From the NCBI GenBank assembly GCA_964528155.1, contig CAZGRL010000001.1, forward strand, positions 1,523-65,522: 64,000 bases of DNA, given 5' to 3'. Every line of letters begins with the position of its first letter. Position 1 is the stretch's first letter. Shown one piece after another: positions 26,695-43,976 of this stretch. The notes beneath the pieces are model-generated. The model had not been told where the DNA came from and ran no database searches. It saw nothing but the letters and a program-made list of their open reading frames with translations. The stretch comes from an uncultured Anaerolineaceae bacterium. Its GTDB lineage: Bacteria; Chloroflexota; Anaerolineae; Anaerolineales; E44-bin32. The position numbers were made by a program, and so were the translations under genes.

Positions 26695-27385
26695 GCGTCA
26701 ATTCTCGGTAGATCGCCGGCAGATCAGACGGCCCTATCTCGCCTCGCTGATAGGATCCGGCGACCACACCCTTGCTGAGAATGTCGATCCGCTCCGCCAG
26801 ATCATAGGTCCGGGTGAGATCGTGCGAGGTCATCAGAACCGTGCGGCCGCGTGCGGCGACCTGCTGCAAGACTTCGTCCAGCATCGCCGAGGCCTCCTGG
26901 TCGAGGCCAGTGTGTGGCTCGTCAAACAGGATTACCTGTGGATCATGCAGAATTGCCCGGCCGATCGCCAGACGCTGCTGCATCCCGCGTGAGAACTCAC
27001 GAACGAGATCGTGCCGCCTTGGCCAGAGGCCGACGGTCTTCAATACCTGGGCGATGCGATCGTCCAGATCAGGGATGGCATACATCCGTCCGTAGAACTT
27101 GAGATTCTCTTGAGCGGTCAGGTCGCCGTAAAGCAACGGCTGGTGGGAGACGACCCCGAGGATACGCCGAACATCGCCCGCCCGAGCCGGCAGACGATGG
27201 CCCCCGACACTCACTTCCCCTGCCGTCGGTCGAGAGAGAGACGCGAGAATGCGTAGCAGGGTGGTCTTGCCGGCACCGTTGGGGCCGACCAACGCCACGA
27301 ACTCGCCTTCGTCAACTTGCAGATCTAGCCCACGCAGGATCGGTTTCAGCCCGAACACCTTTACCAATCCTCGGACTTCAATCAT
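26687..27385 (-). CDS. ccmA: Heme exporter ATPase CcmA
   Basis: Walker A GPNGAGKTT, signature FSRGMQQRL and Walker B ILFDEP. Confidence 0.92.
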   Translation of the reverse strand: MIEVRGLVKVFGLKPILRGLDLQVDEGEFVALVGPNGAGKTTLLRILASLSRPTAGEVSVGGHRLPARAGDVRRILGVVSHQPLLYGDLTAQENLKFYGRMYAIPDLDDRIAQVLKTVGLWPRRHDLVREFSRGMQQRLAIGRAILHDPQVILFDEPHTGLDQEASAMLDEVLQQVAARGRTVLMTSHDLTRTYDLAERIDILSKGVVAGSYQRGEIGPSDLPAIYRELTRA

Positions 27386-29204
27386 GCTGGCTCCGCCTCA
27401 GCGCCAGGGCCCTTGCCTTCAATGCCTCACGTCGGCGGCGATACTCTCTTTGATCGAGCTCGCCAGCCTCGTAGGCCTGGTCGAGATCGGCGATCTGCTG
27501 CAGGATCGAGGGGATCTGAGTCGGCCCAACCGACGCCGGACCTTCCTCTGACACACTCTGCGCTGCAGGTCGCTGCCAGGGCCGGTACCACCACAACCCG
27601 ACGGCAACCAGCGTCAGACCAAGCACACCCAGGCCGATCGCCACGTTCGAGGTCGACAGCCCGGAACCGGCTGACGAACCCCCCTGGCCGCTGAGGGAGA
27701 AGGTCAGTGTCTGTCCGGAGGCCAGGGCCCCAAGGGTCATATTCTGATAGGAATCCCCTCCGATATTCTGCACACCAAGATCTTGCCAACCCGAGCCGCT
27801 CAGTTTGGGCCCGCCGTCCGGTAGGAGCGCCACAACCGCGGAGACTGGGAATGCCATGCTCTGCGTGAAATCCAGACTCCGCTTGTAGGGCAGATCGAAG
27901 TTGAACACGATCTGACCCGTCCCGGATCCGGGCATGAGCGGCGCGAGCACGACCACGCCTTGATCCGTGAACTGGACATCCTGACTGAGCGTGTCGCCGG
28001 GGAGACCCAGGTTCGTCGCCCCCGGAGGCAATGGGATCTCGATCGCGCCCTGGTCGCCCTCACCGACGACGGTTGCGTCGCCATTGTTGGACAGCACCCA
28101 CAGCTCCAGAACTCGGACGATGTCACCCCCGGGGAAATCGAAGATCAAGTGCAACCGATCGACCGTCACCTGACTGACATCGGAAGAGGTTTCGTAAACA
28201 ACAAGCGGTAGCGTGACATCCGGCGATGCCTGGCTAAGATGCGCGGCATCGGAGAAGTACACCACGCCTCTGTATTGCAGCGTCACCCCGAAGATCCTGC
28301 CTTCGACGATATCCAGCCCGTCGAAGGCGAAGCTGCCATCCGGCCCAAGCGTCGTGCTGGTGTCGACCGCCTGCGCGTCGGCGTCGAAGCCGACGAGGTT
28401 TACCTCGAAGTCTCCCTCGAGAGGTTGTCCGGTCGTCCCATTCGTGGCCTGACCGTGGATGCTGCCGATGGATGCGGGTGCCACCGGCGCCGTCTCAGCG
28501 CTGCCTTCCGGGAGCGTGGCGCCGAAAGCCAGGGTACGTACATACGAGGCCGCAGCCCATCGCTGATCCTCTGACAGCTTGTCGGCAAAGCCCGGCATCT
28601 CTCCACCCATGCCATCGGTGGCTGCGGCGAAAACATCTTCCAGCGTGTGCTCGGCCATGAACGTCGATGTATTCAGAGCCGGTCCGCGTGCCGTGCCCTC
28701 ACCGGAGGGACCATGACAGCTCGCACACGTGTCGGAATACATCTGTTCACCTTCACTCAAGGACGTGTCACTCATGCTGAGGCTCAGCGCGTAGGCGACG
28801 ACGTCCCAACGTTGCGCGTCGGTCAGGCTGGTGAAGGGAGGCATGAAACGATCCATCCGGCCCTGGGTCACAACCGCGTACCAATCTGCCGGTTTGGCCG
28901 TTCGTGCGAATTCCTGGTCACCGAGAGGGGATGGGGGATTCGATAGACTGGCAGCCTGCTCGCCGTCGCCCATCCCCTGGGGGCCATGACAGGGAGCGCA
29001 ACGAGTCTGGTAGATTGGCTCGCCGGCATTCGGATCGGGCGCGGTTTCGGGAGGGGAGACTTGGGCCGGCTCCGTCGGAGCGACCATGACCGGCGCGGCA
29101 GCCTGCGCCGTGGCCAGGGCCGGCGGCGGTGTCACATCCCCGGCCAACGAGCACCCGGCGAGCAGAACGCCTGTCGCCAGGATGAATACGAGAGAGCGCC
29201 TCAC
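27378..29204 (-). CDS. Diheme c-type cytochrome lipoprotein with large beta-rich domain, C-terminal TM helix and cytoplasmic tail
   Basis: Lipobox LLAGCS and two class I heme sites (CAPCHGPQGMG, CASCHGPSGEG). A ~330 aa Ser/Gly/Val-rich region follows, then a TM helix (IGLGVLGLTLVAVGLWWY) and a tail LDQAYEAGELDQREYRRRREALKARA. GTG 29204 forms a GTGA overlap with the upstream stop, and the gene end overlaps ccmA by 8 nt. Confidence 0.8.
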   Translation of the reverse strand: MRRSLVFILATGVLLAGCSLAGDVTPPPALATAQAAAPVMVAPTEPAQVSPPETAPDPNAGEPIYQTRCAPCHGPQGMGDGEQAASLSNPPSPLGDQEFARTAKPADWYAVVTQGRMDRFMPPFTSLTDAQRWDVVAYALSLSMSDTSLSEGEQMYSDTCASCHGPSGEGTARGPALNTSTFMAEHTLEDVFAAATDGMGGEMPGFADKLSEDQRWAAASYVRTLAFGATLPEGSAETAPVAPASIGSIHGQATNGTTGQPLEGDFEVNLVGFDADAQAVDTSTTLGPDGSFAFDGLDIVEGRIFGVTLQYRGVVYFSDAAHLSQASPDVTLPLVVYETSSDVSQVTVDRLHLIFDFPGGDIVRVLELWVLSNNGDATVVGEGDQGAIEIPLPPGATNLGLPGDTLSQDVQFTDQGVVVLAPLMPGSGTGQIVFNFDLPYKRSLDFTQSMAFPVSAVVALLPDGGPKLSGSGWQDLGVQNIGGDSYQNMTLGALASGQTLTFSLSGQGGSSAGSGLSTSNVAIGLGVLGLTLVAVGLWWYRPWQRPAAQSVSEEGPASVGPTQIPSILQQIADLDQAYEAGELDQREYRRRREALKARALALRRSQHD

Positions 29205-29686
29205 GCCTCTACCTGCTCCGTGACGAGAGACGCACCGCAGTGCGTGCAGAACCGGTCTCCCCCTACGACGGGCTTGCCACATTGTCCGCAGAACTCGTCA
29301 CTGGCGGGTGCGGCCGCCCGCCGCAAGCGTTTGACCTCGGCCTCGAGGTCCCATTCATCCCCCGCCGTCTCGACCGGCACCTCTCCGATGTCCTGGCCAG
29401 CAGCCTCGCCCTCGAGCCCGGCCAGTTCCCTGAGAAGCTCCGCACCTCGACCCACCAATGACGCACGCTGCGCCTGAAATTCCACCAGCGAGAGCTTGCC
29501 CATCACCTGGTCCATCTCTGCCTCGAGAATGGAGTCCAGAACCTGATCGCGCTCGGCTTTGAGGGCCGAGATGCGCCGTTCGTCGGCGCTGATCTCCGAT
29601 CCGTGCCCCTCAATCAGGGGCCGAGCGATGAAGGCGGCGGCGACGGCAAAAACGGCCAGGATGACGAATAGGGATCCGAGATCCAT
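29201..29686 (-). CDS. Membrane-anchored coiled-coil protein with C-terminal zinc ribbon (CcmI-N-terminus-like)
   Basis: The protein starts MDLGSLFVILAVFAVAAAFIARPL (TM helix), continues with a coiled-coil region and ends FCGQCGKPVVGGDRFCTHCGASL. ATG 29686 lies 2 nt after the ccmG stop. Confidence 0.7.
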   Translation of the reverse strand: MDLGSLFVILAVFAVAAAFIARPLIEGHGSEISADERRISALKAERDQVLDSILEAEMDQVMGKLSLVEFQAQRASLVGRGAELLRELAGLEGEAAGQDIGEVPVETAGDEWDLEAEVKRLRRAAAPASDEFCGQCGKPVVGGDRFCTHCGASLVTEQVEA

Positions 29687-29688
29687 GA

Positions 29689-30270
29689 TTACTCTTCCAT
29701 CGATTGGTTCACGGCCGAGACGATTTCGTCGACCGATGTATAAGGCCCGATCTTCACATGCTTCAAGCGGCCATCGCGACCGACAATGTACGTTTCCGGG
29801 ACGCCCTGCATGCGGAAGGCCTGGGAGATGCGCGTCCCCAGGTCCGGCCCGTTGGCGTAAGTGATGCCAAAGCGATCGAGGTAAGCCAGAGCCTCCGGTT
29901 CGGTATCGACGTAGTCTACACCCAGGAAGACGACATCCTGATCCTTGAGTTGCTGGTGCGCCATCTCGAGCTCCACGGCCTCCTGTTCGCACGGGACGCA
30001 CCACGAGGCCCAGAAGTTAATCACGACGACCTTGCCGCGCAGATCGGCCGTTCTTACGGTGGAGCCATCGAATGTCGTCAGTGTGAACTCGGGAGCTCGC
30101 GCCCCAACGCCGATGTGCCCCTGTTGGGTGCGAATCAGACCCAGCCCGATCACGGCCAGTAAACCGAACACCAAAGCCCAGACAAGGATCGGGCCCCAGC
30201 GTCTGGACCTGGGGACCGTTACGTCTTCAAGCGCGCTCTCGTCCGTCATGATTCGTTCCCTGGCCGCCAT
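29689..30270 (-). CDS. ccmG: Thiol:disulfide oxidoreductase CcmG/ResA/TlpA family
   Basis: A TM anchor plus a thioredoxin fold with VVINFWASWCVPCEQE. The start is ATG 30270 or ATG 30249. Confidence 0.88.
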   Translation of the reverse strand: MAARERIMTDESALEDVTVPRSRRWGPILVWALVFGLLAVIGLGLIRTQQGHIGVGARAPEFTLTTFDGSTVRTADLRGKVVVINFWASWCVPCEQEAVELEMAHQQLKDQDVVFLGVDYVDTEPEALAYLDRFGITYANGPDLGTRISQAFRMQGVPETYIVGRDGRLKHVKIGPYTSVDEIVSAVNQSMEE

Positions 30271-30301
30271 GCACGATCTTTCTAGAATCGGCTGGCGGTC
30301 C

Positions 30302-30787
30302 TCAAGACCTTCGACGCAATTCTTCTTCCAGCCGGGCGACGTATGGATCGTCGCTCGACTCACTCCCGGCCGGATGCGGAACTTCGACCGGCTTGCCCCA
30401 ACTGCGAAAGGCGCGAAACAGGATGTACGCCCCGGCCAGGAATGCGGCCGGCGGCAGGACATACACCAGCCAGTTCAGCCCTCGCGCCGGAGGCGTGGCC
30501 AGCACGCGGGCGCCGTACTGTTCAACGAAGTAGTCCTTGATCTGACTCTCGGACCAGCCGGCTGCCAGCTTGTCGCGGATGGTAGCCCGCCACTGGGCGC
30601 AAGCTTCCGTCGGGCACACGTCCAGAGGGACGTTCTCGCACACCGGGCAGTAAAGCTGGTGGGCGATCGCGTTCACCTCGTCATCCGACGGCGGTGCCGG
30701 CGGCTGGGCCGGGGCCGAGGCCATCAACAGCAATCCGAGCACGGCCGCCCCGACGATCACCAACCACTTCGACGATCCGTGCATCAA
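30302..30787 (-). CDS. ccmH: Cytochrome c-type biogenesis protein CcmH/NrfF
   Basis: A signal peptide, the motif LYCPVCENVPLDVCPTEAC, WSESQIKDYFVEQYG and a C-terminal TM helix. Confidence 0.88.
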   Translation of the reverse strand: MMHGSSKWLVIVGAAVLGLLLMASAPAQPPAPPSDDEVNAIAHQLYCPVCENVPLDVCPTEACAQWRATIRDKLAAGWSESQIKDYFVEQYGARVLATPPARGLNWLVYVLPPAAFLAGAYILFRAFRSWGKPVEVPHPAGSESSDDPYVARLEEELRRRS

Positions 30788-30796
30788 CTGATGTCC

Positions 30797-32851
30797 TCAG
30801 ATCCTGGCTACGACCGCGCGTGAGGCGGCCGTCCGTCGGGTTCTTTCGTACTCACGCGTAGGCCAGGCGGCAAGCAACGTCGCCGCGATGAAGATCAGCC
30901 CGCCCATCCACACAAAGTTGACTTCGGGGTTGTGGTAGACCTTGAACGTGGCCCCTTGCTGAGCGATCGGCTCCCATCCTACCAACAAGACATAGAAATC
31001 ATCCTGAAGCGTCGAGCGGACGCCGGGGATGGTCATGGGTTGCTGGGAGGCGTAGTAGTAGTCACGCCGCGGATGCAAATCACCGACATACTTGCCATCG
31101 CGATAGACCTGGACCACTGCCCGGGCCACGTTGCGACCATCGTTCGTGTCGAACTGGGTCAGCGATTGGTAGGTCATCGTATAGCGCCCGAGAGTCAACG
31201 ACTCGCCGCGCGCCAGCGTTCCCTGCGTTTCCGTCTGGAACATCTCGATGCCGATGATGCCGATCGCCATCAATACAACCCCCAGGTGGATGATGTAGCC
31301 CCCGTAGCGGCGGCGGTTTCGAACCGCCATACGCCACAATGCGAGCGGGAAGCTCTCCGCGTGACGCCTGTGCCGGGCCAGTGCTCCGCGCCAGAACTCC
31401 ACCAGCGTCACGATGATCACAAAGCCGATCAGCCAGTAACCGATGAGCGCGCCGACGAAGGTGACACCGTTGAGGTACAGGACGACCGGTACAACCAGGG
31501 ACAGGACGACAAGCTTCCACAGGTTGCGGCCAAGGCTCCTGCCTGAGCTCGCGCCGTAGGCCGACAGGGGAGCCACGCCCATCAACAATAAAAGCCCGAT
31601 CCACAGGGGGCCGGTGGCTCGCTCATAGAAGGGCGGCCCCACGGTGACTTTCTGGCCGGTGAAGAGCTCCGAGATCAGCGGGAAGATCACCCCCCAGAAA
31701 CAAACGATCAAGATGCCCATGAAGAGCAGGTTGTTGAGCAGGAAGAGCGATTCGCGGGCGAAGACCGAGTCCAGATGATTGTCGCCTTTCAACTCCCCCC
31801 AGCGACTGAGCAACAAGGAAACCGACACCACAAACGTCAATCCGATGAAGCCGAAGAACATCGGGCCTATCGCCGACTGGGCGAAGGCATGAACCGAAGA
31901 CAACACGCCGGAACGGGTCAGGAAGGTCCCGAAGATCACCAGTGCGTAGGTGAGAATGATCAGGAGCATGTTCCAATGCTTCAGCATGCCCCGTTTCTCC
32001 TGGATCATGACCGAGTGCAAGAAAGCGGTCCCGGCCAGCCAGGGCATGAAGGCGGCAATCTCAACCGGGTCCCATCCCCAGTAGCCACCCCATCCCAGCA
32101 CGTCGTAGGCCCAGCGACCGCCAAGGATCAAGCCCAGTGAGAGAAACAGCCAGGCGACAAGCGTCCAGCGGCGGGTGATCCGGATCCAGCGATCATCCGT
32201 CCGATGGGTGACGAGTGCGGCGATGGCGAACGCGTACGGGATCACGAACGAAACGAAACCGAGGTAAAGCATCGGGGGATGGATGACCATGCCCGGATGG
32301 CGCAATAGCGGGTTGAGGCCCTGCCCGTCCATGGGGACGAGGGGGATTGTGCCTCTGGGTTGGAATAGCGCGGCAACTTGCTGGCCATCAAGCGTCTGCC
32401 ACAGTCGTTGGAAGGGGTTTTCAAAGAAGAGCACAAGACTGATAAAGAACGCCAGCGTGACCATTGTGACCACGATCACCCAGGGGAGGAACTCTCGGTC
32501 TCGGTCCCACCGACGCAGGCTGGCGGCAGTCGCAAAGGCCGACATGAGCCACGACCAGAACACGAGTGAGCCTGCCTGGCCGCCCCACAGCGCCGTGACC
32601 TTGAGGTAGGTCGGCATCGCGTCGCTCGTCACGGAGGCCACGTACTTGATCTCGTAGTGACCGCCGACCAGCAGAGCGATGATGGAGAGCGCAGCCAATG
32701 TCACCAATGGCCAGGTCAAGAGCATGGCGTGACGGGCACTCTCGACCAGGGCGGGCTTCCACTTGACGGCGCCGTATGCCGCAGCACCCGCGCCATAGAG
32801 CGCGGCAATGAACGTCAGTACCAGTGAGAAATACCCCAGGTTAGCGAGCAT
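30797..32851 (-). CDS. ccmF: Cytochrome c heme lyase CcmF
   Basis: 684 aa polytopic protein with the W-rich motif WGGYWGWDPVE and conserved His-containing loops. Confidence 0.93.
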   Translation of the reverse strand: MLANLGYFSLVLTFIAALYGAGAAAYGAVKWKPALVESARHAMLLTWPLVTLAALSIIALLVGGHYEIKYVASVTSDAMPTYLKVTALWGGQAGSLVFWSWLMSAFATAASLRRWDRDREFLPWVIVVTMVTLAFFISLVLFFENPFQRLWQTLDGQQVAALFQPRGTIPLVPMDGQGLNPLLRHPGMVIHPPMLYLGFVSFVIPYAFAIAALVTHRTDDRWIRITRRWTLVAWLFLSLGLILGGRWAYDVLGWGGYWGWDPVEIAAFMPWLAGTAFLHSVMIQEKRGMLKHWNMLLIILTYALVIFGTFLTRSGVLSSVHAFAQSAIGPMFFGFIGLTFVVSVSLLLSRWGELKGDNHLDSVFARESLFLLNNLLFMGILIVCFWGVIFPLISELFTGQKVTVGPPFYERATGPLWIGLLLLMGVAPLSAYGASSGRSLGRNLWKLVVLSLVVPVVLYLNGVTFVGALIGYWLIGFVIIVTLVEFWRGALARHRRHAESFPLALWRMAVRNRRRYGGYIIHLGVVLMAIGIIGIEMFQTETQGTLARGESLTLGRYTMTYQSLTQFDTNDGRNVARAVVQVYRDGKYVGDLHPRRDYYYASQQPMTIPGVRSTLQDDFYVLLVGWEPIAQQGATFKVYHNPEVNFVWMGGLIFIAATLLAAWPTREYERTRRTAASRAVVARI

Positions 32852-32888
32852 TCAAGCCGTCTCCTCGTAATGTAACTACCTCAAAGAC

Positions 32889-32934
32889 GACGGACGAGGG
32901 ACGATCGACTCCCGTCTGTCGTCCCTCGTCCGTC
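32889..32934. repeat. Perfect 16-bp-stem hairpin with GACGGACG core (GACGGACGAGGGACGA-N14-TCGTCCCTCGTCCGTC)
   Basis: Read directly. It lies in the ccmE-ccmF spacer and shares the GACGACGGACG core with the element at 25099-25182. Confidence 0.8.
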
Positions 32935-32959
32935 GCCGATCCATCTTTCCCCGGTTACC

Positions 32960-33481
32960 TTAGCCTTGTTGAACCTGAGCCGGGACTTCCTCCTCGTATC
33001 GCGTCGGACACTTGAGCAGGAGTTCGTCGGCTTGGAAGACACCATCCGATCCCATTTGTCCGGTGACGATGGCCTGGGCCTCGTCACGCAAGAGATCCGG
33101 TTTGGGGCCGACGTAGACGACCTGAAGCCGCGTGGCCGTCGGATCGTTCACCGCTTTGTGCAGCACTTCCGCCAGGCCGCCCTCCCGATCGATCTCATTC
33201 ATGTCAGCCGGTACGTTGGCGATGGTGAACCTGAGAGTGAGCGTCTGGGCGTCGTATTCGATCGTGCTCCCATCCACCGCGCCCGAAATCTTGACATCTC
33301 GCCCGGCGACTGCATCCCCCTTGGTCATCAACTCGTCGATGGTCAGATAGTACTGAGCAGCGGCCTGAGTGGATGACGCGATGAGATACACGATCGCGGC
33401 CACGATGAGCAGCGCACCGATGATGAACTTGGTACGACTGGCTGATTTCGGCTCGGCCCTCAAGACTGTTCTTTCCGCCAT
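32960..33481 (-). CDS. ccmE: Heme chaperone CcmE, Cys-variant (CxxxY instead of HxxxY)
   Basis: A TM anchor plus an OB-fold region (VKISGAV...LTLRFTI...VVYVGPKPDLLRDEAQAIVTG). The C-terminal motif is LLLKCPTRY where canonical CcmE has HxxxY. ATG 33481 has GGAGG 8 nt upstream. Confidence 0.88.
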   Translation of the reverse strand: MAERTVLRAEPKSASRTKFIIGALLIVAAIVYLIASSTQAAAQYYLTIDELMTKGDAVAGRDVKISGAVDGSTIEYDAQTLTLRFTIANVPADMNEIDREGGLAEVLHKAVNDPTATRLQVVYVGPKPDLLRDEAQAIVTGQMGSDGVFQADELLLKCPTRYEEEVPAQVQQG

Positions 33482-33751
33482 TGCTCTCCCTCCGGGCCTC
33501 GCCTCAAGACGCCCTGGACCCGACAAACTGAACCGATTCTATCATTATTCCGAAGTTCGCCCTGTCGGATGAAAGTCACTTTTGCGGCCGACAACTGACG
33601 GGCTCATCCTGTGACGTGGCACACTCCGACGCCCATTGACGGCAACACCCCTTTGGATCTTTCTCGGCCTGCATTAACACTCGATGAAACCCCGGCTATG
33701 ATATCCTGAGAAGAATGAAGTGCAGCTCGCCTTCTCGGGTCTTGCGCCGGC

Positions 33752-34465: not shown

Positions 34466-34867
34466 TCCTATATGTGCCGTTGAGAACAAAGTGGCATAAT
34501 GACTACCTGGGTAGGGTGATTTCAGTCGACGGTCCTTGGTGACAAGCATCACTTGGCAGTATGGGTTGATCACCCTACACTTCGCCTGTAATCATGGGGA
34601 GTCTACCCCACCCAACCGGGTAGCGGTGCGGGGGCTTGCCCCCTTCGGCGTTTGCCGGACAAATTGCATAGATGTCCCCGCTCGGAGGATGATTGCCTGC
34701 GGCTGTCGGGCAATTGCCATTCCGGCCGGCTTCTGGCAGGCCTCACGACCGGCGATTCGCAGGTCTCCCGTGCCCTCCGACAAGGGGACCGATGGGGTGA
34801 TCGATCAATGGAATGGATGGTGGCCGATGCACGTATCGACAAGCGGTTCGATCGCTGAGGTGGTGCG

Positions 34868-36037
34868 ATGACGGCGCGAACCCGCCTCGGTCGGATTTCC
34901 CTGGGCATTGGCGCGGCGCTCACGCTCGCCGCCGTCGTGATAGGGCTTCGCGCCGGGGGGGCTTTGGCGGCTGGTGGGCGTGGGGCCAGGCCATCCGGGG
35001 CCCAGCCGATCCCTCCAGCCTCGGGCTCGGCTCAGGGCATCAGCAACGAATCCTGCTTCGCCTGCCACAGCACCCCTGGGCTCACCATGGATCTGCCTTC
35101 CGGGGAGCAGTTGTATCTGACTGTCGACCGCGATACGTACAACAACTCCGTCCATGGCCAGCTCGGCTACGCCTGCGTCCAGTGCCACACCGACATCACC
35201 GGATATCCCCATCCAAAGGTGGCGGCACAGACCCTACGCGAGTTCACCCTGGAGAAATACACCGCCTGCGCCGTATGCCATCAGGACAAATATCAGCAGA
35301 CGCTGGATAGCGTTCATCAGAAGGCATTGGCGGCCGGGAACATCAACGCCGCAGTGTGCACCGACTGCCATGGAGCTCACGACGTCCAGCCACCCGACCA
35401 ACCCCGCACCCGCATCCCCCAGACCTGTCAGAAATGTCACTCCCAGATCTATGACCTTTACAAGGACAGCGTTCACGGTGCGGCGCTTATCGGCGAAGGA
35501 AATCCGGACGTCCCGACTTGCATCGATTGCCATGGAGTTCACAACATCGAAGGTCCGTCGAACAGCCCCTTCCGGCTGTTCTCCCCCCAGATCTGCGCCC
35601 GCTGCCACGCCAACAAACAGTTGATGGACAAGTACGGTATAAGCACAGACGTCTTCAACACGTATGTCTCTGACTTCCACGGTACGACTGTCGTGATCTT
35701 CGAAGCCATCACTCCCGATCAACAGACCAACAAGCCCGTGTGCATCGACTGTCATGGCGTGCACGATATCCTCGCACCGAATAACCCCAACAGCACGGTG
35801 ATGAAGGCCAACCTTCTCAAAACGTGCCAGAAGTGTCATCCGGACGCGACCACGAATTTCCCCACAGCCTGGCTGAGCCACTATCGGCCCAGCCCGCAGC
35901 ATTATGCCCTGGTCTACTACGTCCAATTGTTCTATCGGATTCTGATCCCGACCGTCATTGGAGGCATGCTGGTCTTCGTCGTCGCTGATGGGGTCCGTCG
36001 GATAATGATCAAGCGGAAGGGGCGCAGCGATGAGTGA
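34868..36037 (+). CDS. Nine-heme c-type cytochrome with C-terminal membrane anchor (CbcL periplasmic-domain-like)
   Basis: Signal/TM at the N-terminus and nine CxxCH motifs counted (CFACH, CVQCH, CAVCH, CTDCH, CQKCH, CIDCH, CARCH, CIDCH, CQKCH). C-terminal TM helix ILIPTVIGGMLVFVVADGV. The GAGGTGG Shine-Dalgarno lies upstream. Confidence 0.88.
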   Translation: MTARTRLGRISLGIGAALTLAAVVIGLRAGGALAAGGRGARPSGAQPIPPASGSAQGISNESCFACHSTPGLTMDLPSGEQLYLTVDRDTYNNSVHGQLGYACVQCHTDITGYPHPKVAAQTLREFTLEKYTACAVCHQDKYQQTLDSVHQKALAAGNINAAVCTDCHGAHDVQPPDQPRTRIPQTCQKCHSQIYDLYKDSVHGAALIGEGNPDVPTCIDCHGVHNIEGPSNSPFRLFSPQICARCHANKQLMDKYGISTDVFNTYVSDFHGTTVVIFEAITPDQQTNKPVCIDCHGVHDILAPNNPNSTVMKANLLKTCQKCHPDATTNFPTAWLSHYRPSPQHYALVYYVQLFYRILIPTVIGGMLVFVVADGVRRIMIKRKGRSDE

Positions 36038-37190
36038 ATCCCGCAAGTACCTCCGCTTCCCGGTCTCCTATCGAATCGAGCACTGGATCCTGGTTACCGC
36101 TTTCACCACCCTGGCGATCACCGGGCTGGTGCAGAAGTTCCCAATGGCGGGTATCTCGGATGCGATCCTGCGCCTGCTCGGTGGGATCGATACGACGCGG
36201 GTGATCCACCATAGAGCGGCGGTCGTCCTGATGCTGGAAGCCGTGTATCACATCGGTGCCGTCGGATTCCGCCTTTTCGTCCGCCGGACACGTCTTTCGA
36301 TGCTCCCGACGATGACCGATGTTCGTGTGGCCGTGCAGGCGTTGCTCTTCAATCTGGGTCTCAGCAAAGTCCGTCCACAGCAGGGTCGTTTCAGCTTCGA
36401 AGAGAAGGTCGAGTATTGGGCGGTGGTCTGGGGCACCGTGATCATGGCGCTCACTGGCTTCATGATGTGGAACCCGATCGCCACGACCCGCTTACTCCCA
36501 GGGGAGTTTGTGCCGGCGGCGAAGTCGGCCCACGGGGCGGAAGCGGTGCTGGCCGTCCTGGCCATCATCATCTGGCACATCTACCACGTTCACGTCCGCG
36601 AACTCAACAAGAGCATGTTCACCGGTCGACTGACAGAAGACGAGATGATCGAGGAGCACCCGCTCGAGTTGGCCGATCTCAAGGCCGGTGTGGCAGAGCG
36701 TCCGGTCGAACAGCGCTTGCTTACCCGCCGCAAGCGGATTTTCTATCCGGTCTACGGCCTGCTGGCGGCGGTGATGCTCCTCGGGATCTACGCCTTTGTC
36801 GCGTTGGAGCATACAGCTGTTACCACCCTGCCGCCCGCCGAGAATGTCGTCGTCTACGCTCCGCTCACGCCGACACCTTTCCCGACGGCGCTGCCTTCGG
36901 CCACGGCACAGCCGATCACAGCGGTCACCTGGGATGGCGGGATCGGGGCCATTTTCCAGACCAAGTGCGGGACGTGCCACGGCGGGCCGTCGGGTCTGGG
37001 CGGGCTGGATCTGTCCAGCTACGCCGGCATCAGCGCCGGTGGAGTCGACGGCCCGGCGATCGTGCCTGGCGATGCCGACGCCAGCCTGCTGGTATCGAAG
37101 CAATCCGCCGGCGGTCATCCGGGGCAGCTGACCGGTGAGGAACTGGCCCTGGTCCGGCAGTGGATCGAGGCCGGCGCGCCGGAAAACTAA
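36030..37190 (+). CDS. FdnI/HydC-type diheme cytochrome b fused to a C-terminal PSCyt1-like monoheme c domain
   Basis: The N-terminus YLRFPVSYRIEHWILVTAFTTLAITGLVQKF plus four to five TM helices with conserved His fit the Ni_hydr_CYTB type. The C-terminal ~91 aa read WDGGIGAIFQTKCGTCHGG...IVPGDADASLLV...WIEAGAPEN. The gene overlaps the previous one by 8 nt. Confidence 0.85.
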   Translation: MSESRKYLRFPVSYRIEHWILVTAFTTLAITGLVQKFPMAGISDAILRLLGGIDTTRVIHHRAAVVLMLEAVYHIGAVGFRLFVRRTRLSMLPTMTDVRVAVQALLFNLGLSKVRPQQGRFSFEEKVEYWAVVWGTVIMALTGFMMWNPIATTRLLPGEFVPAAKSAHGAEAVLAVLAIIIWHIYHVHVRELNKSMFTGRLTEDEMIEEHPLELADLKAGVAERPVEQRLLTRRKRIFYPVYGLLAAVMLLGIYAFVALEHTAVTTLPPAENVVVYAPLTPTPFPTALPSATAQPITAVTWDGGIGAIFQTKCGTCHGGPSGLGGLDLSSYAGISAGGVDGPAIVPGDADASLLVSKQSAGGHPGQLTGEELALVRQWIEAGAPEN

Positions 37191-37210
37191 AACTCAGGCT
37201 CAATCGGAGA

Positions 37211-38357
37211 ATGCGCATAGAAACGTTGAGAGGGGCGATCCGGCGCTTCTACTTCCCGCCCGAAGGCTCACCCTTGTGGATCGGGCTGCTCCCGTACGCC
37301 ACGCTCGACGTGCTCAGCCTGGCGGCGCTCGTCTCAGGCGCGTACGCCTGGGATTACACCAATTCGCCTCCTTTCTGTGGCGCCGTTTGCCATACCATGC
37401 CGCCCGAATACACGGCTTGCCTGACCTCGCATCACGCCCGGGTGGATTGCGTCGAGTGCCACATCGGCCGCGGGTTCATCGCCACCCGTGTGACCCGCAA
37501 GGCGGGAGATACCAAGTACATCGTCGCTCTGGCTTTCCACGAGTATGAATTTCCGATTCGGGCGACGGACTTGAGGCCGGCCCGCGAGACGTGTGAGCGT
37601 TGCCACTTCCCGGAGAAATTCTCCGACGATAGCCTGCGTCACATTCAACACTATGCCAATGGTGTGGATAACACGCCGACGACGACTTATCTCGTCCTCA
37701 AGACCGGAGGCGGGTCGAAGCGGCAGGGCCTCGGGCGCGGCATCCACTGGCACATCGAGAACCAGGTTCACTATCTGCCGTTGGATCCCGAAGAGCAGTC
37801 GATCCCCTACGTGCGTGTCATCCAGGACGATGGTTCAGTCTCGGAATACGTCGAGTTGGGTTCAGGCATCGATCCGGCCTCGATCAACCCATCCGACTTG
37901 AAGGAGATGGACTGCATCACGTGTCACAACAGGGTCACCCACCTGATCCTCTCGCCCGAGGACACCGTCGATCAGCTCATCACCGGCAGCGCCATTTCGC
38001 AGGAAATCCCCGAATTACACGAGAAGGCCTGTCGAGGTGTACGGCGCGTCATACAGCTTGACCCAGGAGGCCATGTCAGGCATCGCCGGCCTGACATACG
38101 ATGGTGCCATTGGCTTGCTGTTCCAGAACCGCTGTGCCGCGTGCCATGGCGCGTCAGCAACCATGGGCCTCGACCTGACGTCCTACGCCACGGCCATGGC
38201 CGGAAGCAAGAACGGGCCGGTGATCGTGCCCGGTGATCCTCAGGGAAGCCTTCTTGTCCGGAAACAATCGGGGGACCAGCCCCACTTCGGACAGTTCTCA
38301 GCCAAAGAACTTCAACGAGTCGTCGATTGGATCAAGGCCGGTGCGCCTGAGAAGTAA
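37211..38357 (+). pseudogene. NapC/NirT-like tetraheme quinol dehydrogenase plus C-terminal PSCyt1-like monoheme domain, split by a +1 frame error near 38030
   Basis: An N-terminal TM helix and four CxxCH motifs (CGAVCH, CVECH, CERCH, CITCH). After ...EIPELHEKA the frame turns to nonsense, while skipping T38030 gives VEVYGASYSLTQEAMSGIAGLTYDGAIGLLFQNRCAACHG...WIKAGAPEK (ORF 38037-38357). That second part has no signal peptide of its own. Confidence 0.8.
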
Positions 38358-38446
38358 GGACCGAGCCTGCGGATTGGCGGCGAGAACGCAACAACCCGAA
38401 CTCGAAATGTCACCGGGCGTGACACGCGAAGGGAGGTGCTTCAACA

Positions 38447-38926
38447 ATGGGTGAACCGAACCGAATGGGCCGTCGCCAATTCCTGAGCACGCTGACCTGG
38501 GCGATCGGCGGGGTCATCAGCGCCGGGCTCGGCATCCCTGCCATTGCCTACATCATTGGTCCGGCGCTCCAGGGCACGGGGACCCAGAATTGGATCCGGC
38601 TGGGCTCGACAGCCAAGGTCGAACTCGGAGCCCCCACGCTTTTCAAAGCCCGAATCACCCGCAAGACAGGCTGGATCGAGAACGAGGAAGAACTCTCAGC
38701 CTACGTCAGGACCGACAACGGGCGCGAATTCGTGGCGATGTCCAACATCTGCACCCACCTCGGGTGCCGGGTGCGCTGGGTCAGCGGGCAAGGGGAGTTC
38801 TTCTGCCCCTGCCACAACGGCGTATTCGATAAGGACGGCAACGTCGTGTCCGGCCCTCCGCCGCGACCCCTCGACCGCTATGAAGTTAAGGTCGAGGACG
38901 ACGAACTGTTCATTCTGGGAGGCTGA
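38447..38926 (+). CDS. Rieske [2Fe-2S] subunit of a cytochrome bc-type complex
   Basis: Tat-like RRQFL, and the motifs CTHLGCRVRW and CPCHNGVF. Confidence 0.92.
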   Translation: MGEPNRMGRRQFLSTLTWAIGGVISAGLGIPAIAYIIGPALQGTGTQNWIRLGSTAKVELGAPTLFKARITRKTGWIENEEELSAYVRTDNGREFVAMSNICTHLGCRVRWVSGQGEFFCPCHNGVFDKDGNVVSGPPPRPLDRYEVKVEDDELFILGG

Positions 38927-38928
38927 AC

Positions 38929-39588
38929 ATGGCGGCCAGAGTCGGCGATTGGTTGGACGAACGACTGGGATGGCGGCAGGTCTGGGAAGCGATCTTCCTG
39001 CGCAAGATCCCCAAAGTCAATTGGTTCTACACCCTTGGGAGCGCGGCACTCTTCTTGGCGGTGAATCAGATTGTGACGGGGATTTTGCTCACCATCTACT
39101 ACGTCCCGACCCCCGATCACGCGTATGACAGCGTGCAGTTCATCACCGGGCAGGTCCCGGCCGGCTGGCTAATTCGAGGATTGCACCACTGGGGTGCCAG
39201 CGCCATGGTCGTCATCGTGGGCCTGCACATGTTGCGTGTGATCCTGCAAGGCTCCTACAAGTACCCGCGGGAGGTCACCTGGTTTACCGGTGTTCTTCTC
39301 TTGTTGGCGGTGGTCGGGTTCGGCTTCACCGGATACCTCCTCCCATGGGACCAGAAGGCATTCTGGGCTACGACCGTCGGCACGCGCATCGCCGGGGTGA
39401 CGCCCGTTGTCGGAGAGTGGATCCTGCGCATCATGCGCGGCGGCGAGGAACTCTCAGCGGTCACCCTGGCACGATTCTTCGGCGTACACGTGTGGGTCCT
39501 GCCGGCGGCCTTGCTGAGCCTGGTACTCGTGCACCTCTACCTTGTCATCCGGATCGGGATCAGCGCCCCGCCGAAGAGGGGGGAGTGA
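38929..39588 (+). CDS. Cytochrome b6-like subunit (N-terminal four-helix cytochrome b)
   Basis: 219 aa with NWFYTLGSAALFLAVNQIVTGILL, GLHHWGASAMVV and YLLPWDQKAFWAT, the b6/b N-terminal-domain signatures. It begins 2 nt after the Rieske gene. Confidence 0.9.
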   Translation: MAARVGDWLDERLGWRQVWEAIFLRKIPKVNWFYTLGSAALFLAVNQIVTGILLTIYYVPTPDHAYDSVQFITGQVPAGWLIRGLHHWGASAMVVIVGLHMLRVILQGSYKYPREVTWFTGVLLLLAVVGFGFTGYLLPWDQKAFWATTVGTRIAGVTPVVGEWILRIMRGGEELSAVTLARFFGVHVWVLPAALLSLVLVHLYLVIRIGISAPPKRGE

Positions 39589-39591
39589 CCG

Positions 39592-41694
39592 ATGAACGAA
39601 CAAGAAAAGAAAGAGTACCTGGAGGCCTACCACAAAGCCAAGGAAGCCGGGCCGTCGTTCTTTCCTGACGTCGTCGTCAAAGATGCCGTCGTCGCACTCT
39701 TGGTGTTCCTGGCGCTTGCGGCTCTGGCCTACTTCATCGGCGCCCCGCTCGAAGCCCGGGCCAACCCGGCCGATACATCGTACACCCCTCGACCGGAATG
39801 GTATTTCCTGTTCTTGTTCCAGTTGTTGAAGTACTTCCCGGGGAAGTTGGAGGTTATCGGGGTCATCGTCATCCCGACCGTGGTCCTCGGATTGTTGTTC
39901 TTCTTGCCATTTATCGATCGGACAGCCAAGCGACATCCCATCGGTCGGCCGATTGTCACCGCCGGCGTGACACTGGTCGTGCTCGCCGTCGGGCTGCTGA
40001 CGCTGCAGGCGGTGCGCGAGACGCCTCCGCCGGCCGACACTTCACTCGGTGATCCAACCGCCGCGCTCTACGTCACAAACTGCGCCGGCTGCCACGGCCC
40101 GTCCATCAGCGTGCCGCCCAGCACCAACCTGCACGCCGTCATCGCCCAGGGCAAACACGAAGGCATGCCGGCCTGGAACGCCGATCTCACCAGCGACGAG
40201 ATCGATGCGCTGGCAGGTTTCATCCTCTCCCCCGACGGCAGCCGCCTGTTCACCGAGAACTGTGCCGAATGCCACCAGACCTCTGAACTCGTGGCCAGCG
40301 ATCCACTTGAGCTTAGGTCAGCATTGCAGCAGGGGCCCGACTACCCACCGCACGCCGGTCTGGAAGTGCCGGCCTGGACACAAACACTCAGCCCCGAGGA
40401 GCGCACGGCGCTGCTCAATTTCCTGGTCGCCCCTGACGGGCAGCGCCTGTTCGCCATCAACTGCGCTGCGTGCCACGGACGATCCGTGTCCTTCTCGGGG
40501 GACGAAGCCACCCTGCGCCAGATCATCCAACAGGGCGGGTTGCATCTCGAGATGCCGCCGTGGCGAGAGAGATTGAGCTCGTCGGAGCTCGACATGCTGG
40601 CCAGCTATGTTGTCGACCCGTCCAACACGCCTCAAGGCCAGCAACTGTTCTCCAACTACTGCACCGAATGCCATGGGCAGCGCGTCCCGGCGGAGACTGA
40701 CGTCGAGACGGCCCGCCAGGCAATCGCCAGCGGCGGCGGGCACGAGACGATGCCCGTATGGGGAAACATCCTCACGCCCGAACAAATCGACGCGTTGGTG
40801 AGTTACACACTCGAAGCCGCTCACGGCGCGCCCCTCGAGCTGGGCCAGGATCTCTTTGCCAAGAACTGCTCCGTCTGCCACGGCGATTTCGGCGAAGGCG
40901 GGCCCAACCCAACCCGACCGGACGACATCATCGCCCCAATCAGCTCAGCCGAGTTCCTCGAGACGCGCGATGACGCCACACTGCGAGCGATCATCTCCCA
41001 GGGCCAGCCCAACTTCGGGATGTCACCCTTTGGGAACGCTTACGGAGGCCCGTTGAGCGACGAGGAGGTTGACGCTCTCGTAGCCTTCATCCGATCGTGG
41101 CAAGCAAAGCCTCCGGTGGAACTGCCTCCGGAAATCGTGAGCCGACCGCTATCGATCGAGGGTCCTGACATCTACGCCGAGGTCTGCGCGCAATGCCACG
41201 GCGTTCAAGGCGAAGGCCTGATCGGCCCATCGCTGAGCGATCCTTCGTTCCAATCCGCCAACACGGATGAGCAGATCTACAACACGATCAATGTCGGCCA
41301 CGAGGCCACAGCCATGATCGGCTGGGGAGAGATCCTCAGCGCCGACCAGATCCACCAGCTTGTGGATTACATCCGGAAGCTGGGCGGAGCAGGAGCCGCG
41401 CAAGACGCTGGCGAAGTCTCTTTTAAGAATGACGTGCTCCCCATCCTGGATGAGAAGTGCGGGATCTGTCATGGCAGCCTGGGAGGCTGGGACGCCTCGA
41501 GCCATCAATCGGTGATGGAGAGCGGGGACAATGGGCCAGTCGTGAACCCCGGAGACCCCGAAGCCAGCCTGCTCGCCCAGAAGCTCCTCGGCACTCAGAC
41601 GATTGGAGCAGAGATGCCTCCAGCAGGCCCGCTGCCGCAGGACGAAATCCAGACGATCCTGGATTGGATCAGCGCGGGCGCCTTGGACAACTGA
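39592..41694 (+). CDS. Subunit IV-like (cytochrome b C-terminal) membrane domain fused to seven c-type heme domains
   Basis: The N-terminal ~130 aa contain PEWYFLFLFQLLKYFPG (the PEWY motif of subunit IV). Seven CxxCH motifs follow (CAGCH, CAECH, CAACH, CTECH, CSVCH, CAQCH, CGICH). Six sit in tandem class I-like repeats, and the last sits in a PSCyt1-like module ending WISAGALDN. Confidence 0.88.
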   Translation: MNEQEKKEYLEAYHKAKEAGPSFFPDVVVKDAVVALLVFLALAALAYFIGAPLEARANPADTSYTPRPEWYFLFLFQLLKYFPGKLEVIGVIVIPTVVLGLLFFLPFIDRTAKRHPIGRPIVTAGVTLVVLAVGLLTLQAVRETPPPADTSLGDPTAALYVTNCAGCHGPSISVPPSTNLHAVIAQGKHEGMPAWNADLTSDEIDALAGFILSPDGSRLFTENCAECHQTSELVASDPLELRSALQQGPDYPPHAGLEVPAWTQTLSPEERTALLNFLVAPDGQRLFAINCAACHGRSVSFSGDEATLRQIIQQGGLHLEMPPWRERLSSSELDMLASYVVDPSNTPQGQQLFSNYCTECHGQRVPAETDVETARQAIASGGGHETMPVWGNILTPEQIDALVSYTLEAAHGAPLELGQDLFAKNCSVCHGDFGEGGPNPTRPDDIIAPISSAEFLETRDDATLRAIISQGQPNFGMSPFGNAYGGPLSDEEVDALVAFIRSWQAKPPVELPPEIVSRPLSIEGPDIYAEVCAQCHGVQGEGLIGPSLSDPSFQSANTDEQIYNTINVGHEATAMIGWGEILSADQIHQLVDYIRKLGGAGAAQDAGEVSFKNDVLPILDEKCGICHGSLGGWDASSHQSVMESGDNGPVVNPGDPEASLLAQKLLGTQTIGAEMPPAGPLPQDEIQTILDWISAGALDN

Positions 41695-41857: not shown

Positions 41858-43330
41858 ATGTCGACAGATCGAAGTCGATCCACAATCCCCTGGCTCCGAC
41901 ATAGCCTGCGGGCGCGGGTCGCCATCAGCGTTGCGCTTCCACTGATGCTCGCATTAGCCTCCCTGTCGATTGCCCACTACTTGCGCGGCCGCGACCTGGT
42001 CGAAAGCCAGGTTCGGATGACGGCAGCCCAGCTTGGCCAGATTCTGACAGGAAGCCTGCGTCGGGCGATGCTGGCAAATGACAATCAAATGATCACCGCC
42101 GTCTTAGAGGACGTCGGTAGTATGGAAAACATTGATCGGATCCGTATCGTCGACAGCCAGGGTGTCGTTCGCCTCGACAGCCATTCGACGGACCTCGGTC
42201 GGCAGGAGCTCACCGGCCAGCCGGGGTGCGTCGAGTGCCATGTCTACGATCCTTCTGTCCGACCGCGAGCGGTGCTCCTGACGGGCGCCGCCGGGATCTT
42301 GAGGATCGCCACACCGATCGACAATGAACTGGCCTGCCTGGGCTGTCACTCTGAGTCCCAGAGACACCTGGGTGTCGTCCTGGCCGATGTCCCGGTCCAG
42401 GCGCTCGAACAGAACTTGTTCCACGATCTCGAAATCGATCTGGCGATCTCAGTCGGCATCACGCTGCTGGTGACCATCGGGGTGTATTTGCTCATACACC
42501 GGTCGGTTGTGCGCAGAGTGGAGAGTTTCCTGCCGGCATTGGCGTCATTCGCCCGCGGCGACTTGAGCGCCCGCCTGCCGGAGCGTGGCCGCGAGCACGA
42601 CGAATTGGGGCAACTCGCCGTCGCTTTCAATCAGATGGCCGACGACCTGGAAAGGCATACCCGCGATCAGGCCGCACGAACCAGGCTGCGTCAACGCGCA
42701 ATTGTTGAGGAACGTGAGCGGATTGCCCGCGAACTTCACGACGGCATCGCCCAGCTCCTGGGATTCGTCAACAACAAAGCCATGGCCGTCCGCCTGCTTC
42801 TGAAGAAGAACCAGACCCATGAAGCCGATGATCAGCTCCAACAACTCGAGGAGGCCTCGCACGGTCTTTTCGTCGATGTCAGAGAAGCGATCATCGGCTT
42901 GAGGACCACAGACAAGGCCGGCGTCGGGCTTTCCAGCGCAGTCGAAGACTACACCCACCAATTCAGCCGACTGAGTGGGATCACGGTGGACCTCTCGATC
43001 GGCCCTGGGGTAAGGGATATTGAGCTCAACGCCGAAGTCGAGTTGCAGTTGCTGCGCATCATTCAGGAGGCCCTGACGAACATTCGCAAGCACGCCGCCG
43101 CCAGCCGCGCTTCGGTGAGCCTGCGGAGGAATGACACCAGACTCGAGTTGGCCATCACTGACAACGGCGTGGGCTTCGTGCCGGCCTCTGCGGACTCCGA
43201 CCATCAGCCCCGGTTCGGATTGAGCACCATGCAAGAGCGGGCCGAGTCGATCGGGGCGGCGTTCGAACTGGCTTCCGCGCCGGGGGCAGGCACTCGCGTC
43301 TCCGTCAACGCTCCGCTGGGGAGGAGATAG
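41858..43330 (+). CDS. Sensor histidine kinase (HAMP, HisKA_3, HATPase) with two CxxCH motifs in the extracytoplasmic loop
   Basis: Two TM helices flank a ~170 aa loop containing GCVECH and ACLGCH. HAMP (LAVAFNQMADDL), the H-box ARELHDGIAQLL and the ATPase domain (NGVGF, GLSTMQERA) follow. Confidence 0.9.
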   Translation: MSTDRSRSTIPWLRHSLRARVAISVALPLMLALASLSIAHYLRGRDLVESQVRMTAAQLGQILTGSLRRAMLANDNQMITAVLEDVGSMENIDRIRIVDSQGVVRLDSHSTDLGRQELTGQPGCVECHVYDPSVRPRAVLLTGAAGILRIATPIDNELACLGCHSESQRHLGVVLADVPVQALEQNLFHDLEIDLAISVGITLLVTIGVYLLIHRSVVRRVESFLPALASFARGDLSARLPERGREHDELGQLAVAFNQMADDLERHTRDQAARTRLRQRAIVEERERIARELHDGIAQLLGFVNNKAMAVRLLLKKNQTHEADDQLQQLEEASHGLFVDVREAIIGLRTTDKAGVGLSSAVEDYTHQFSRLSGITVDLSIGPGVRDIELNAEVELQLLRIIQEALTNIRKHAAASRASVSLRRNDTRLELAITDNGVGFVPASADSDHQPRFGLSTMQERAESIGAAFELASAPGAGTRVSVNAPLGRR

Positions 43331-43334
43331 GCGC

Positions 43335-43976
43335 ATGCGGGTCCTCGTAGCCGACGATCACTCCCTCTTCCGGGACGGCGTGGTAAGCCTGTTGGAGGCA
43401 GCCGGTTTCGAGGTCGTCGGCCAGGTGGGAGACGGTCTGGCCGCCGTCGAGTCCGCCATTGACCTGAGGCCTGACCTCGTCTTGATGGATATCACTATGC
43501 CCAAACTCAGCGGGCTGGACGCGCTTCGTCGCATGAGGGCGGAAGCTCCCGAGATCCAGGTGGTCATGCTCACCGTCTCGGACGAGGACAGCGATCTGCT
43601 TGCCGCGATCCAGTCCGGTGCCAAGGGCTACATCCACAAGAGCTTGAGTGCCCAGGAGTTCCTCGACCTGATCGGCGGGCTGGAGCGCGGCGAGGCAGCC
43701 TTGAGCCGGAAGACGGCCGCGCGCCTGATCGCCAGGCTTGGAAACAGGCCCGGGCCTGAGGACGACAGACTGCCGCGCCTCACGCGACGCGAGATCGAGC
43801 TACTCAAGCTGGTGGCCGACGGTTTATCTAACAAGGCCATCGCCCAATCGTTGTCCGTGAGCGAGAACACAGTCAAATATCACGTTCGCAACATCCTGCA
43901 AAAGCTCGGAGTTCAAAACCGGACCGAGGCTGTCGCTCATGCGATCCGCGCCGGGCTCCTCGGCCGTCGTGATTGA
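43335..43976 (+). CDS. NarL/FixJ-family response regulator (REC plus LuxR HTH)
   Basis: MRVLVADDHSLFRDG, LVLMDITMP, and LTRREIELLKLVADGLSNKAIAQSLSVSENTVKYHVRNIL. Confidence 0.93.
   Translation: MRVLVADDHSLFRDGVVSLLEAAGFEVVGQVGDGLAAVESAIDLRPDLVLMDITMPKLSGLDALRRMRAEAPEIQVVMLTVSDEDSDLLAAIQSGAKGYIHKSLSAQEFLDLIGGLERGEAALSRKTAARLIARLGNRPGPEDDRLPRLTRREIELLKLVADGLSNKAIAQSLSVSENTVKYHVRNILQKLGVQNRTEAVAHAIRAGLLGRRD

Follow-up and report, generated by a model that had tools for sequence, protein, structure and literature searches.

The stretch of DNA analysed here (64,000 nucleotides, called the window below; positions 1,523 to 65,522 of contig CAZGRL010000001.1, assembly GCA_964528155.1) comes from an uncultured Anaerolineaceae bacterium of the phylum Chloroflexota and carries, on its forward strand, two overlapping genes for a nine-haem cytochrome c (P0001) and a membrane cytochrome b with a monohaem c tail (P0002). 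An earlier note, made from the letters alone, had described this pair as a split form of CbcL, a Geobacter protein that holds both parts on one polypeptide. Our alignments make the pair a member, in two-subunit form, of the CbcL/MtoC/MtrH superfamily (coordinates of all features are collected in Table 1).

The c subunit holds exactly nine CxxCH motifs (at residues 63, 103, 134, 164, 187, 218, 243, 292 and 320), whose spacing recurs in split as well as fused relatives, and a motif count over the 389 residues of its open reading frame (ORF; 34868-36037) returned neither CxxCK nor CxxxCH. Its N-terminus is a hydrophobic helix (signal or anchor), and the transmembrane (TM) helix near its C-terminus, TM0, is followed by a basic tail (RRIMIKRKGR), which fits a C-terminus on the cytoplasmic side. 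The nine CxxCH histidines and nine distal ones (H96, H115, H150, H171, H203, H225, H271, H299 and H338) are invariant in 46 homologues, and every haem can, going by this conservation, be bis-His ligated. Because there is one invariant distal His per haem, the protein reads as a bis-His electron wire rather than a catalytic enzyme. A PDB fold search with its AlphaFold2 (AF2) model (predicted local distance difference test, pLDDT, 83) gave no solved close relative; the best matches were HAO and MtrA (TM-score 0.3-0.45, root-mean-square deviation (rmsd) 9-12 Å), which we take to reflect generic multihaem packing in the model. Nor did PDB sequence searches return a solved structure of CbcL type, a 278-residue 'cytochrome c' (28pb_A) matching weakly.

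The ATG of the b gene lies inside the final c codons, in an 8-nt overlap (ATGAGTGA) that joins c-gene stop and b-gene start, with a Shine-Dalgarno-like stretch (GGAAGGGG) upstream of it. The two ORFs lie in different frames and encode two polypeptides; relatives with 62-65% identity (L003-L006) have the same overlap. P0002 matches the Pfam families Ni_hydr_CYTB (PF01292; 4e-15) and PSCyt1 (1e-8) as well as the NCBIfam model for FdnI (TIGR01583; E 5e-16), the latter with 59.2 bits and hence under the curated cut-off of 115.85. Its b domain aligns full-length to Escherichia coli FdnI (PDB 1KQF chain C), the loop that builds the menaquinone site of FdnI included, and the four b-haem ligands (H18, H60, H168, H183) are, together with H74, invariant among 42 homologues. 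In the AF2 model of P0002 (pLDDT 68), a disordered Pro/Thr linker leads from five long helices to a small domain, also helical; the sole significant match of this model in a PDB fold search was FdnI (1kqf_C, TM-score 0.75 on the target), with hydrogenase-1 cytochrome b next. Basic residues, read from the sequence, precede helices 1 and 5 and also lie between helices 2 and 3, which fits a topology with the N-terminus inside and the tail outside; the RRKR in front of helix 5 agrees with the positive-inside rule. This tail carries the only CxxCH of P0002 (residue 313), C313, C316, H317 and H363 being invariant in the same 42 homologues, and H363 is the likely distal ligand of its haem. What the earlier note had read from the pair feature by feature is borne out by these results: nine CxxCH in 34868-36037, a b gene starting at 36030 within the last c codons, a dihaem b protein of the HydC/FdnI type, a C-terminal TM helix kept by the c part and an extra monohaem tail on the b part.

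CbcL of Geobacter is, by genetics, a low-potential menaquinol oxidase for which a quinone site on the cytoplasmic side has been argued (bioRxiv 10.1101/2022.08.31.506072; 10.1101/2021.04.15.440034). Its orthologous group is marked by being needed to respire acceptors below ~-0.1 V. The protein (GSU0274, also called Cbc1) has 619 residues, CxxCH motifs at 34, 57, 82, 105, 129, 158, 186, 229 and 257, and six TM helices that start at 285, 351, 399, 477, 511 and 589 (PMC6295460). As reference we used CbcL-signature ORFs, not GSU0274 itself, picked by these published haem positions from 401 genomes that share their phylum with a deltaproteobacterial relative; three of the ORFs (L118, L119, L120; ~618 residues) have the spacing 23, 25, 23, 24, 29, 28, 43, 28, which is the CbcL signature. 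Aligned by BLASTP with the L119 protein, P0001 is 28% identical over 307 residues (E 3e-36), all nine haem motifs falling one on one, and P0002 27% identical over 224 residues (E 2e-16), so the similarity that the earlier note had expected from such a comparison is significant for both. In a six-frame search of three CbcL-bearing genomes of Desulfuromonadales type, the CbcL frame was the best genome-wide match of either window protein, the next-best lying at 1e-10 for the c and at 0.008 for the b protein, and phmmer matches P0001 to the c domains of fused c+b proteins with E from 1e-57 to 1e-137.

Judged by these alignments, the pair and CbcL are collinear homologues. Nine c haems and an FdnI-type dihaem b domain are common to the two, with c before b, and the one plus five TM helices of the pair repeat the order and spacing of the GSU0274 helices, the C-terminal helix of P0001 corresponding to CbcL TM1 and the five helices of P0002 to TM2-6; neither has an iron-sulfur (FeS), flavin or molybdopterin partner. 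The differences are that the window module is made of two polypeptides rather than one, at 27-28% identity; that its first four haems are set wider than in CbcL, whereas the last five agree in spacing; that the TM1 His of CbcL is a Phe in the c anchor, with a conserved Asp four residues later; that the b part bears the PSCyt1 monohaem tail where CbcL ends just after its last helix; and that the host belongs to a Chloroflexota lineage, with the genes in a Rieske/b6 operon.

Other members and prototypes bear on this placement. MtoC and MtrH, from Fe(II)-oxidising and Fe(III)-reducing Beta- and Gammaproteobacteria (MtoC being proposed as a quinone reductase; PMC6295460), belong to the same superfamily and share with the window nine haems and part of the spacing (40 ... 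31, 25 ... 28); a class-level search around a Steroidobacteraceae genome recovered their type with the spacing 41, 22, ~53, 28, 31, 25, 30, 28. Unlike the window pair, they are fused, group with CbcL and lie in mtrAB/mtoAB porin-cytochrome clusters, which are absent at the window. FdnI has the fold of the window b subunit and all four haem ligands, and its partner FdnH is anchored by one helix just as the multihaem cytochrome of the window is, whereas the window b subunit adds a fifth helix and a haem-c tail and has no FdnG/FdnH, molybdopterin or FeS genes adjacent to it.

For the phylogeny, 172 b domains were placed on an unrooted tree by maximum likelihood (quick search; support by the Shimodaira-Hasegawa-like approximate likelihood ratio test, SH-aLRT). 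The b subunit of the window belongs to a Chloroflexota clade (22 rows, support 99), which is nested, with split pairs of other phyla, in a clade of 44 rows (87), while CbcL (98) and MtoC/MtrH (95) stand together in a separate clade of 39 rows (99). Forcing the Chloroflexota clade and CbcL together costs 98.8 log-likelihood units and is rejected (approximately unbiased (AU) test, p-AU 0.0038, for a group named after the tree was seen). By this phylogeny, the pair neither came about by fission of CbcL nor is orthologous to it, its own clade being a separate one in which split forms predominate. Hence, of the 'split CbcL' proposed by the earlier note, the collinear homology with nine haems matched one-to-one stands but descent from, or orthology to, CbcL does not, and the split state that it had singled out is no peculiarity, as the split form is common across many phyla.

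The split or fused state changes at least 14 times on the b-domain tree. Within the 44-row clade of the window, 36 rows are split and eight fused, the fusions standing in about four separate places. One of them, an Anaerolineae fusion (P0244/P0393), is collinear with the window proteins at 57-59% identity and joins the two parts by a lysine-rich linker of ~25 residues; P0255, P0357 and P0360 are further natural collinear fusions in this clade. Given these fusions ('Rosetta stone'), the two window proteins would form one complex, which we infer from them and from translational coupling. Since sampling for the tree is biased by locus retrieval and the tree is unrooted, we make no statement on whether the split or the fused state is ancestral.

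Two traits follow the clades. The His in the c anchor, a 'fifth His' discussed as a possible redox switch of CbcL (Joshi et al.), is present in CbcL, MtoC and the sister clade; in the Chloroflexota clade, Phe or Leu takes its place and the Asp four residues later is conserved. Haem-c tails on the b subunit, with 1, 2, 4, 6, 8 or 10 CxxCH, occur among the loci of the tree only in the Chloroflexota clade, within which the one tailed member from another phylum, an Acidobacteriota fusion (L033), also sits; b genes of the sister clade measure 240-290 residues and end just past the fifth helix. In some Anaerolineae, the b subunit alone can carry more c haems than its nine-haem partner, tails with 8-10 CxxCH being found in L016 (7030-9021), L031 (7003-8763), L020 (7051-8799) and L027 (7006-8706).

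Homologues of each window protein number in the thousands, so the pair is not a chance association. An exhaustive HMMER search with P0001 gave 4063 representatives at E <1e-3 and 603 at <1e-30, fused c+b proteins with the same spacing included. Among 80 loci obtained from a scan of species genomes, split pairs with the spacing of the window occur in Chloroflexota (including Dehalococcoidia), Myxococcota, Tectimicrobiota, Acidobacteriota and Binatota; those of Nitrospirota carry 13 haems, and fused forms with 11, 13, 17 or 19 haems prevail in Ignavibacteriota, Bacteroidota, Acidobacteriota, Gemmatimonadota and others, which agrees with the published table. That table belongs to a survey of the superfamily (Zhong and Shi 2018, PMC6295460), the one systematic survey that we came across, which describes c domains of 3-23 CxxCH ahead of the b domain, has fused proteins as its only entries and lists zero CbcL-family members in Chloroflexi; the literature we searched, for split forms as well, holds no description of such a pair in Chloroflexota/Anaerolineae. 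In the class of the window, a close homologue of the b subunit is present in 116 of 301 sampled genomes (93 of 221 high-quality ones; 65 of 175 genera), and within families of the class presence is nearly all-or-none.

Some distant or odd members deserve mention. In one class, which is evidently of Ignavibacteria/Bacteroidota kind, the family is present in 251 of 401 genomes (e.g. L045, L042, L054, L075) with 13- and 19-haem forms. The two often stand in tandem, the 13-haem form being fused and the 19-haem form split or fused, and a search of these 401 genomes returned no MtoC. Genomes of the class Gammaproteobacteria (L129, L130, L132, L134, L135, L138, L143) hold a long-branched clade of split pairs with a seven-haem c protein (spacing 38, 67, 24, 35, 54, 36) and a b protein of ~317 residues, a type for which the published CbcL/MtoC/MtrH table has no matching entry. 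A b homologue with 63% identity (P0194) is labelled at NCBI as coming from a 'Candidatus Hodarchaeota archaeon' metagenome-assembled genome; since the other homologues are bacterial, its contig is probably mis-binned.

Table 1. Features of the cytochrome pair and of its surroundings (window coordinates).
Feature	Position	Strand	Basis or remark
Nine-haem cytochrome c subunit P0001, 389 aa	34868..36037	+	ORF translation, motif count, helix calls
CxxCH-bearing stretch of P0001, residues 63-324	35054..35839	+	spacing 40, 31, 30, 23, 31, 25, 49, 28
C-terminal TM helix of the c subunit (TM0), ~residues 355-377, equivalent to CbcL TM1	35930..35998	+	
8-nt overlap, c-gene stop and b-gene start	36030..36037	+	b-gene ATG inside final c codons
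Cytochrome b subunit P0002, 386 aa: FdnI-type four-helix dihaem b domain, fifth TM helix, Pro/Thr linker, PSCyt1 monohaem c domain	36030..37190	+	
Span with b-haem ligands H18, H60, H168, H183 (E. coli FdnI H18, H57, H155, H169) and invariant H74	36081..36578	+	alignment to 1kqf_C
Fifth TM helix of the b subunit, equivalent to CbcL TM6, predicted to take the C-terminus to the outer face	36750..36806	+	
PSCyt1-type monohaem c tail, CGTCH at residues 313-317	36927..37187	+	
NapC/NirT-like cytochrome gene, frame break before PSCyt1 tail	37211..38357	+	
Rieske protein, cytochrome b6, subunit IV fused to seven c-haem domains	38447..41694	+	
HAMP/HisKA_3 sensor kinase with two CxxCH, and LuxR-type response regulator	41858..43976	+	
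System I cytochrome c maturation genes (CcmE, CcmF, thioredoxin-like), divergent; attach c haems	27378..33526	-	

The pair heads a tightly packed block (34868-41694), no terminator-like site lying between its genes, and further multihaem/NrfD genes lie downstream. The divergent ccm arrangement recurs in L005/L006. One relative, at 62% identity, repeats the layout of the window; in another, at 65%, the neighbours of the pair are a collagen-like multihaem protein and an NrfD module, and Rieske genes are missing. Across the loci, linkage to Rieske/b6 is rare (the nearest relatives and L047/L055 only), NapC-like or NrfD modules are common beside the pair, and a HisKA_3 kinase is its most frequent neighbour in Chloroflexota and the sister clades. 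Among the kinases compared (which include L005 16419-17966, L009, L014, L047 and L007), that of the window (41858-43330) and its closest homologue have two CxxCH in the outer loop, several others one. The genome as a whole holds one PF01292 gene, one haem-copper oxidase and a bd-like oxidase, and NrfA was not found in it.

PSCyt1 tails that are paralogous to that of the b subunit (36927-37187) end the NapC-like protein (38088-38354) and subunit IV (41392-41691); the b tail is 52% identical to the NapC-like tail over 92 residues and 38% to the subunit IV tail. Compared with a 573-residue homologue in L006, the NapC-like gene has residues 19-282 in one frame and the PSCyt1 tail (485-572) in another, ~180 middle codons with three haem motifs being missing and the frame shifting near 38010-38030. 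An assembly error could account for the break, as could true decay or deletion; the likely start of the gene is the ATG at 37211 rather than the GTG at 37160. The 1.3-kb gap between ccmE and the pair (33527-34867) appears non-coding: a 259-residue ORF on its reverse strand (33674-34453) was rejected as spurious, having no Pfam match and no conservation in relatives.

What may the pair do? By analogy with CbcL, it works, as we think probable though far from assured, in menaquinol:cytochrome c electron export. In such a scheme, the c subunit would be exported, loaded with its nine bis-His haems by the neighbouring Ccm system and held on the outer face of the cytoplasmic membrane by its C-terminal helix, which may pack on the four-helix bundle of the b subunit much as the FdnH anchor does on FdnI. 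The FdnI-type bundle would stack two b haems across the membrane, with the fifth helix placing the tethered monohaem cytochrome c outside. At a quinone site that homology to FdnI suggests to lie near the cytoplasmic-side haem, menaquinol would be oxidised at the inner face, electrons moving outward through the two b haems with help from the membrane potential and then to the nine-haem wire and tethered haem, and on to other extracytoplasmic cytochromes or acceptors. As understood for CbcL, the route would release protons inside and conserve little energy yet reach acceptors of low potential. Where the quinone binds, which way electrons flow and what accepts them in the cell are all inferred here. 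Extracellular or metal electron transfer by the pair is only a possibility, the genome having O2 reductases and the pair heading a Rieske/b6 operon.

Export is supported by the domain matches, haem ligands, collinear homology to CbcL, natural fusions, conserved overlap and adjacent Ccm genes described above, by the published genetics of CbcL, and by the occurrence of the pair as an autonomous unit in varied cytochrome neighbourhoods. Several points weigh against it: the pair lies outside the CbcL clade, which makes transfer of function indirect; its c anchor is without the TM0 His of CbcL; the AF2 model of P0002 is of moderate quality (pLDDT 68); for MtoC relatives the opposite direction has been proposed (PMC6295460); and with a haem-copper and a bd-like oxidase in the genome, electrons need not leave the cell.

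The MtoC proposal leads to an alternative in which the same complex works backwards, taking electrons from low-potential donors outside and reducing menaquinone at the cytoplasmic face as the arm of a proton-motive redox loop, similar to that of Fdn-N, with the quinol then feeding Rieske/b6 and the oxidase. Electron flow in Fdn-N has the quinone-reducing direction, so the FdnI prototype does run this way; the pair is, moreover, co-operonic with Rieske/b6 in a genome with a haem-copper oxidase, and relatives of MtoC/MtrH type in Fe(II) oxidisers are the proposed quinone reductases (PMC6295460). Flow against the membrane potential would, however, need donors below ~-0.1 V, no enzyme for such a donor lies nearby, most relatives of the pair have no Rieske/b6 linkage, and the relative that has been characterised, CbcL, is a quinol oxidase. 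So to our minds, the reverse direction is unlikely, albeit an option to be kept in view.

Returning to export by menaquinol oxidation, the three paralogous PSCyt1 tails (on the CbcL-type b subunit, the NapC-like protein and subunit IV) invite a thought that we put forward with considerable doubt: in Chloroflexota, usually taken to have no periplasm enclosed by an outer membrane, they might be a shared tethered carrier which wires the modules together or to a common acceptor, the cell switching within one operon, under a haem-sensing kinase, between a low-yield quinol oxidase with its site on the cytoplasmic side and a Q-cycle complex. Going further, one could see in the pair no autonomous enzyme but an accessory to a larger assembly, a supercomplex in which these tails would join it physically to the NapC-like protein and Rieske/b6. 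Multihaem-decorated Rieske/b complexes of anammox bacteria would be comparable, and the tight packing of 34868-41694 with no terminator-like sites, the three tails themselves and the identical arrangement in L005/L006 fit such an assembly. Rieske/b6 genes adjoin the pair only in its nearest relatives and L047/L055, though, the others having the pair alone or beside NrfD-type modules, and the fused single-chain forms do without a nearby Rieske gene, which makes a supercomplex improbable.

That the nine-haem protein is instead a catalytic enzyme of the HAO, ONR or NrfA kind sitting on a b-type anchor, as its weak best fold matches (HAO, 6t5e, E 1.5e-3, TM-score 0.36; MtrA) and a sub-threshold match to Pfam Cytochrom_C552 (PF02335) might suggest, is very hard to credit: the fold matches stay below a TM-score of 0.5 (HAO 0.32-0.36) with an rmsd of 11-12 Å and 14-16% identity, the homology to the CbcL c domain is far stronger (E 3e-36), and the absence of CxxCK together with nine invariant distal histidines for nine haems is not what such an enzyme would have. 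Grouping with the HAO/ONR family, which the earlier note had named beforehand as the outcome contrary to its proposal, was not seen. An equally slim chance is left for a pair of the CbcBA rather than the CbcL type (GSU0593/0594; set apart here by its published description), despite separate b and multihaem c subunits with a C-terminal anchor helix on the latter in both, and despite the Chloroflexi relatives that its authors noted (Joshi et al.), as CbcB belongs by sequence to an unrelated b family and has three His, the fourth b-haem His coming from the anchor of the seven-haem CbcA (Joshi et al.), whereas the window has four ligands in the b subunit, a His-free anchor and nine haems, and the CbcL frame is the only significant match of P0002 in Geobacter-type genomes.

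Together, these findings make the pair a real and common two-subunit variant of a known module, equipped with a tethered haem, and not a new kind of system. The presence of CbcL-type proteins in a genome is used as a marker for the export of electrons from the quinone pool. In a large sister clade that includes Chloroflexota, Myxococcota, Acidobacteriota, Nitrospirota, Tectimicrobiota and Binatota, two genes are the norm, and the two-gene form is found in ~40% of the sampled genomes of the window's class; because it is so common, surveys that seek the fusion under-count the capacity for electron export. The pair alone is no proof of metal reduction, as it lies outside the CbcL and MtoC clades, is without one of the His residues discussed for the potential switch of CbcL and stands beside respiratory genes of aerobic type. 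The haem-c tails of the b subunit, varying from 1 to 10 haems, are a lineage-specific elaboration of this module and merit biochemical study.

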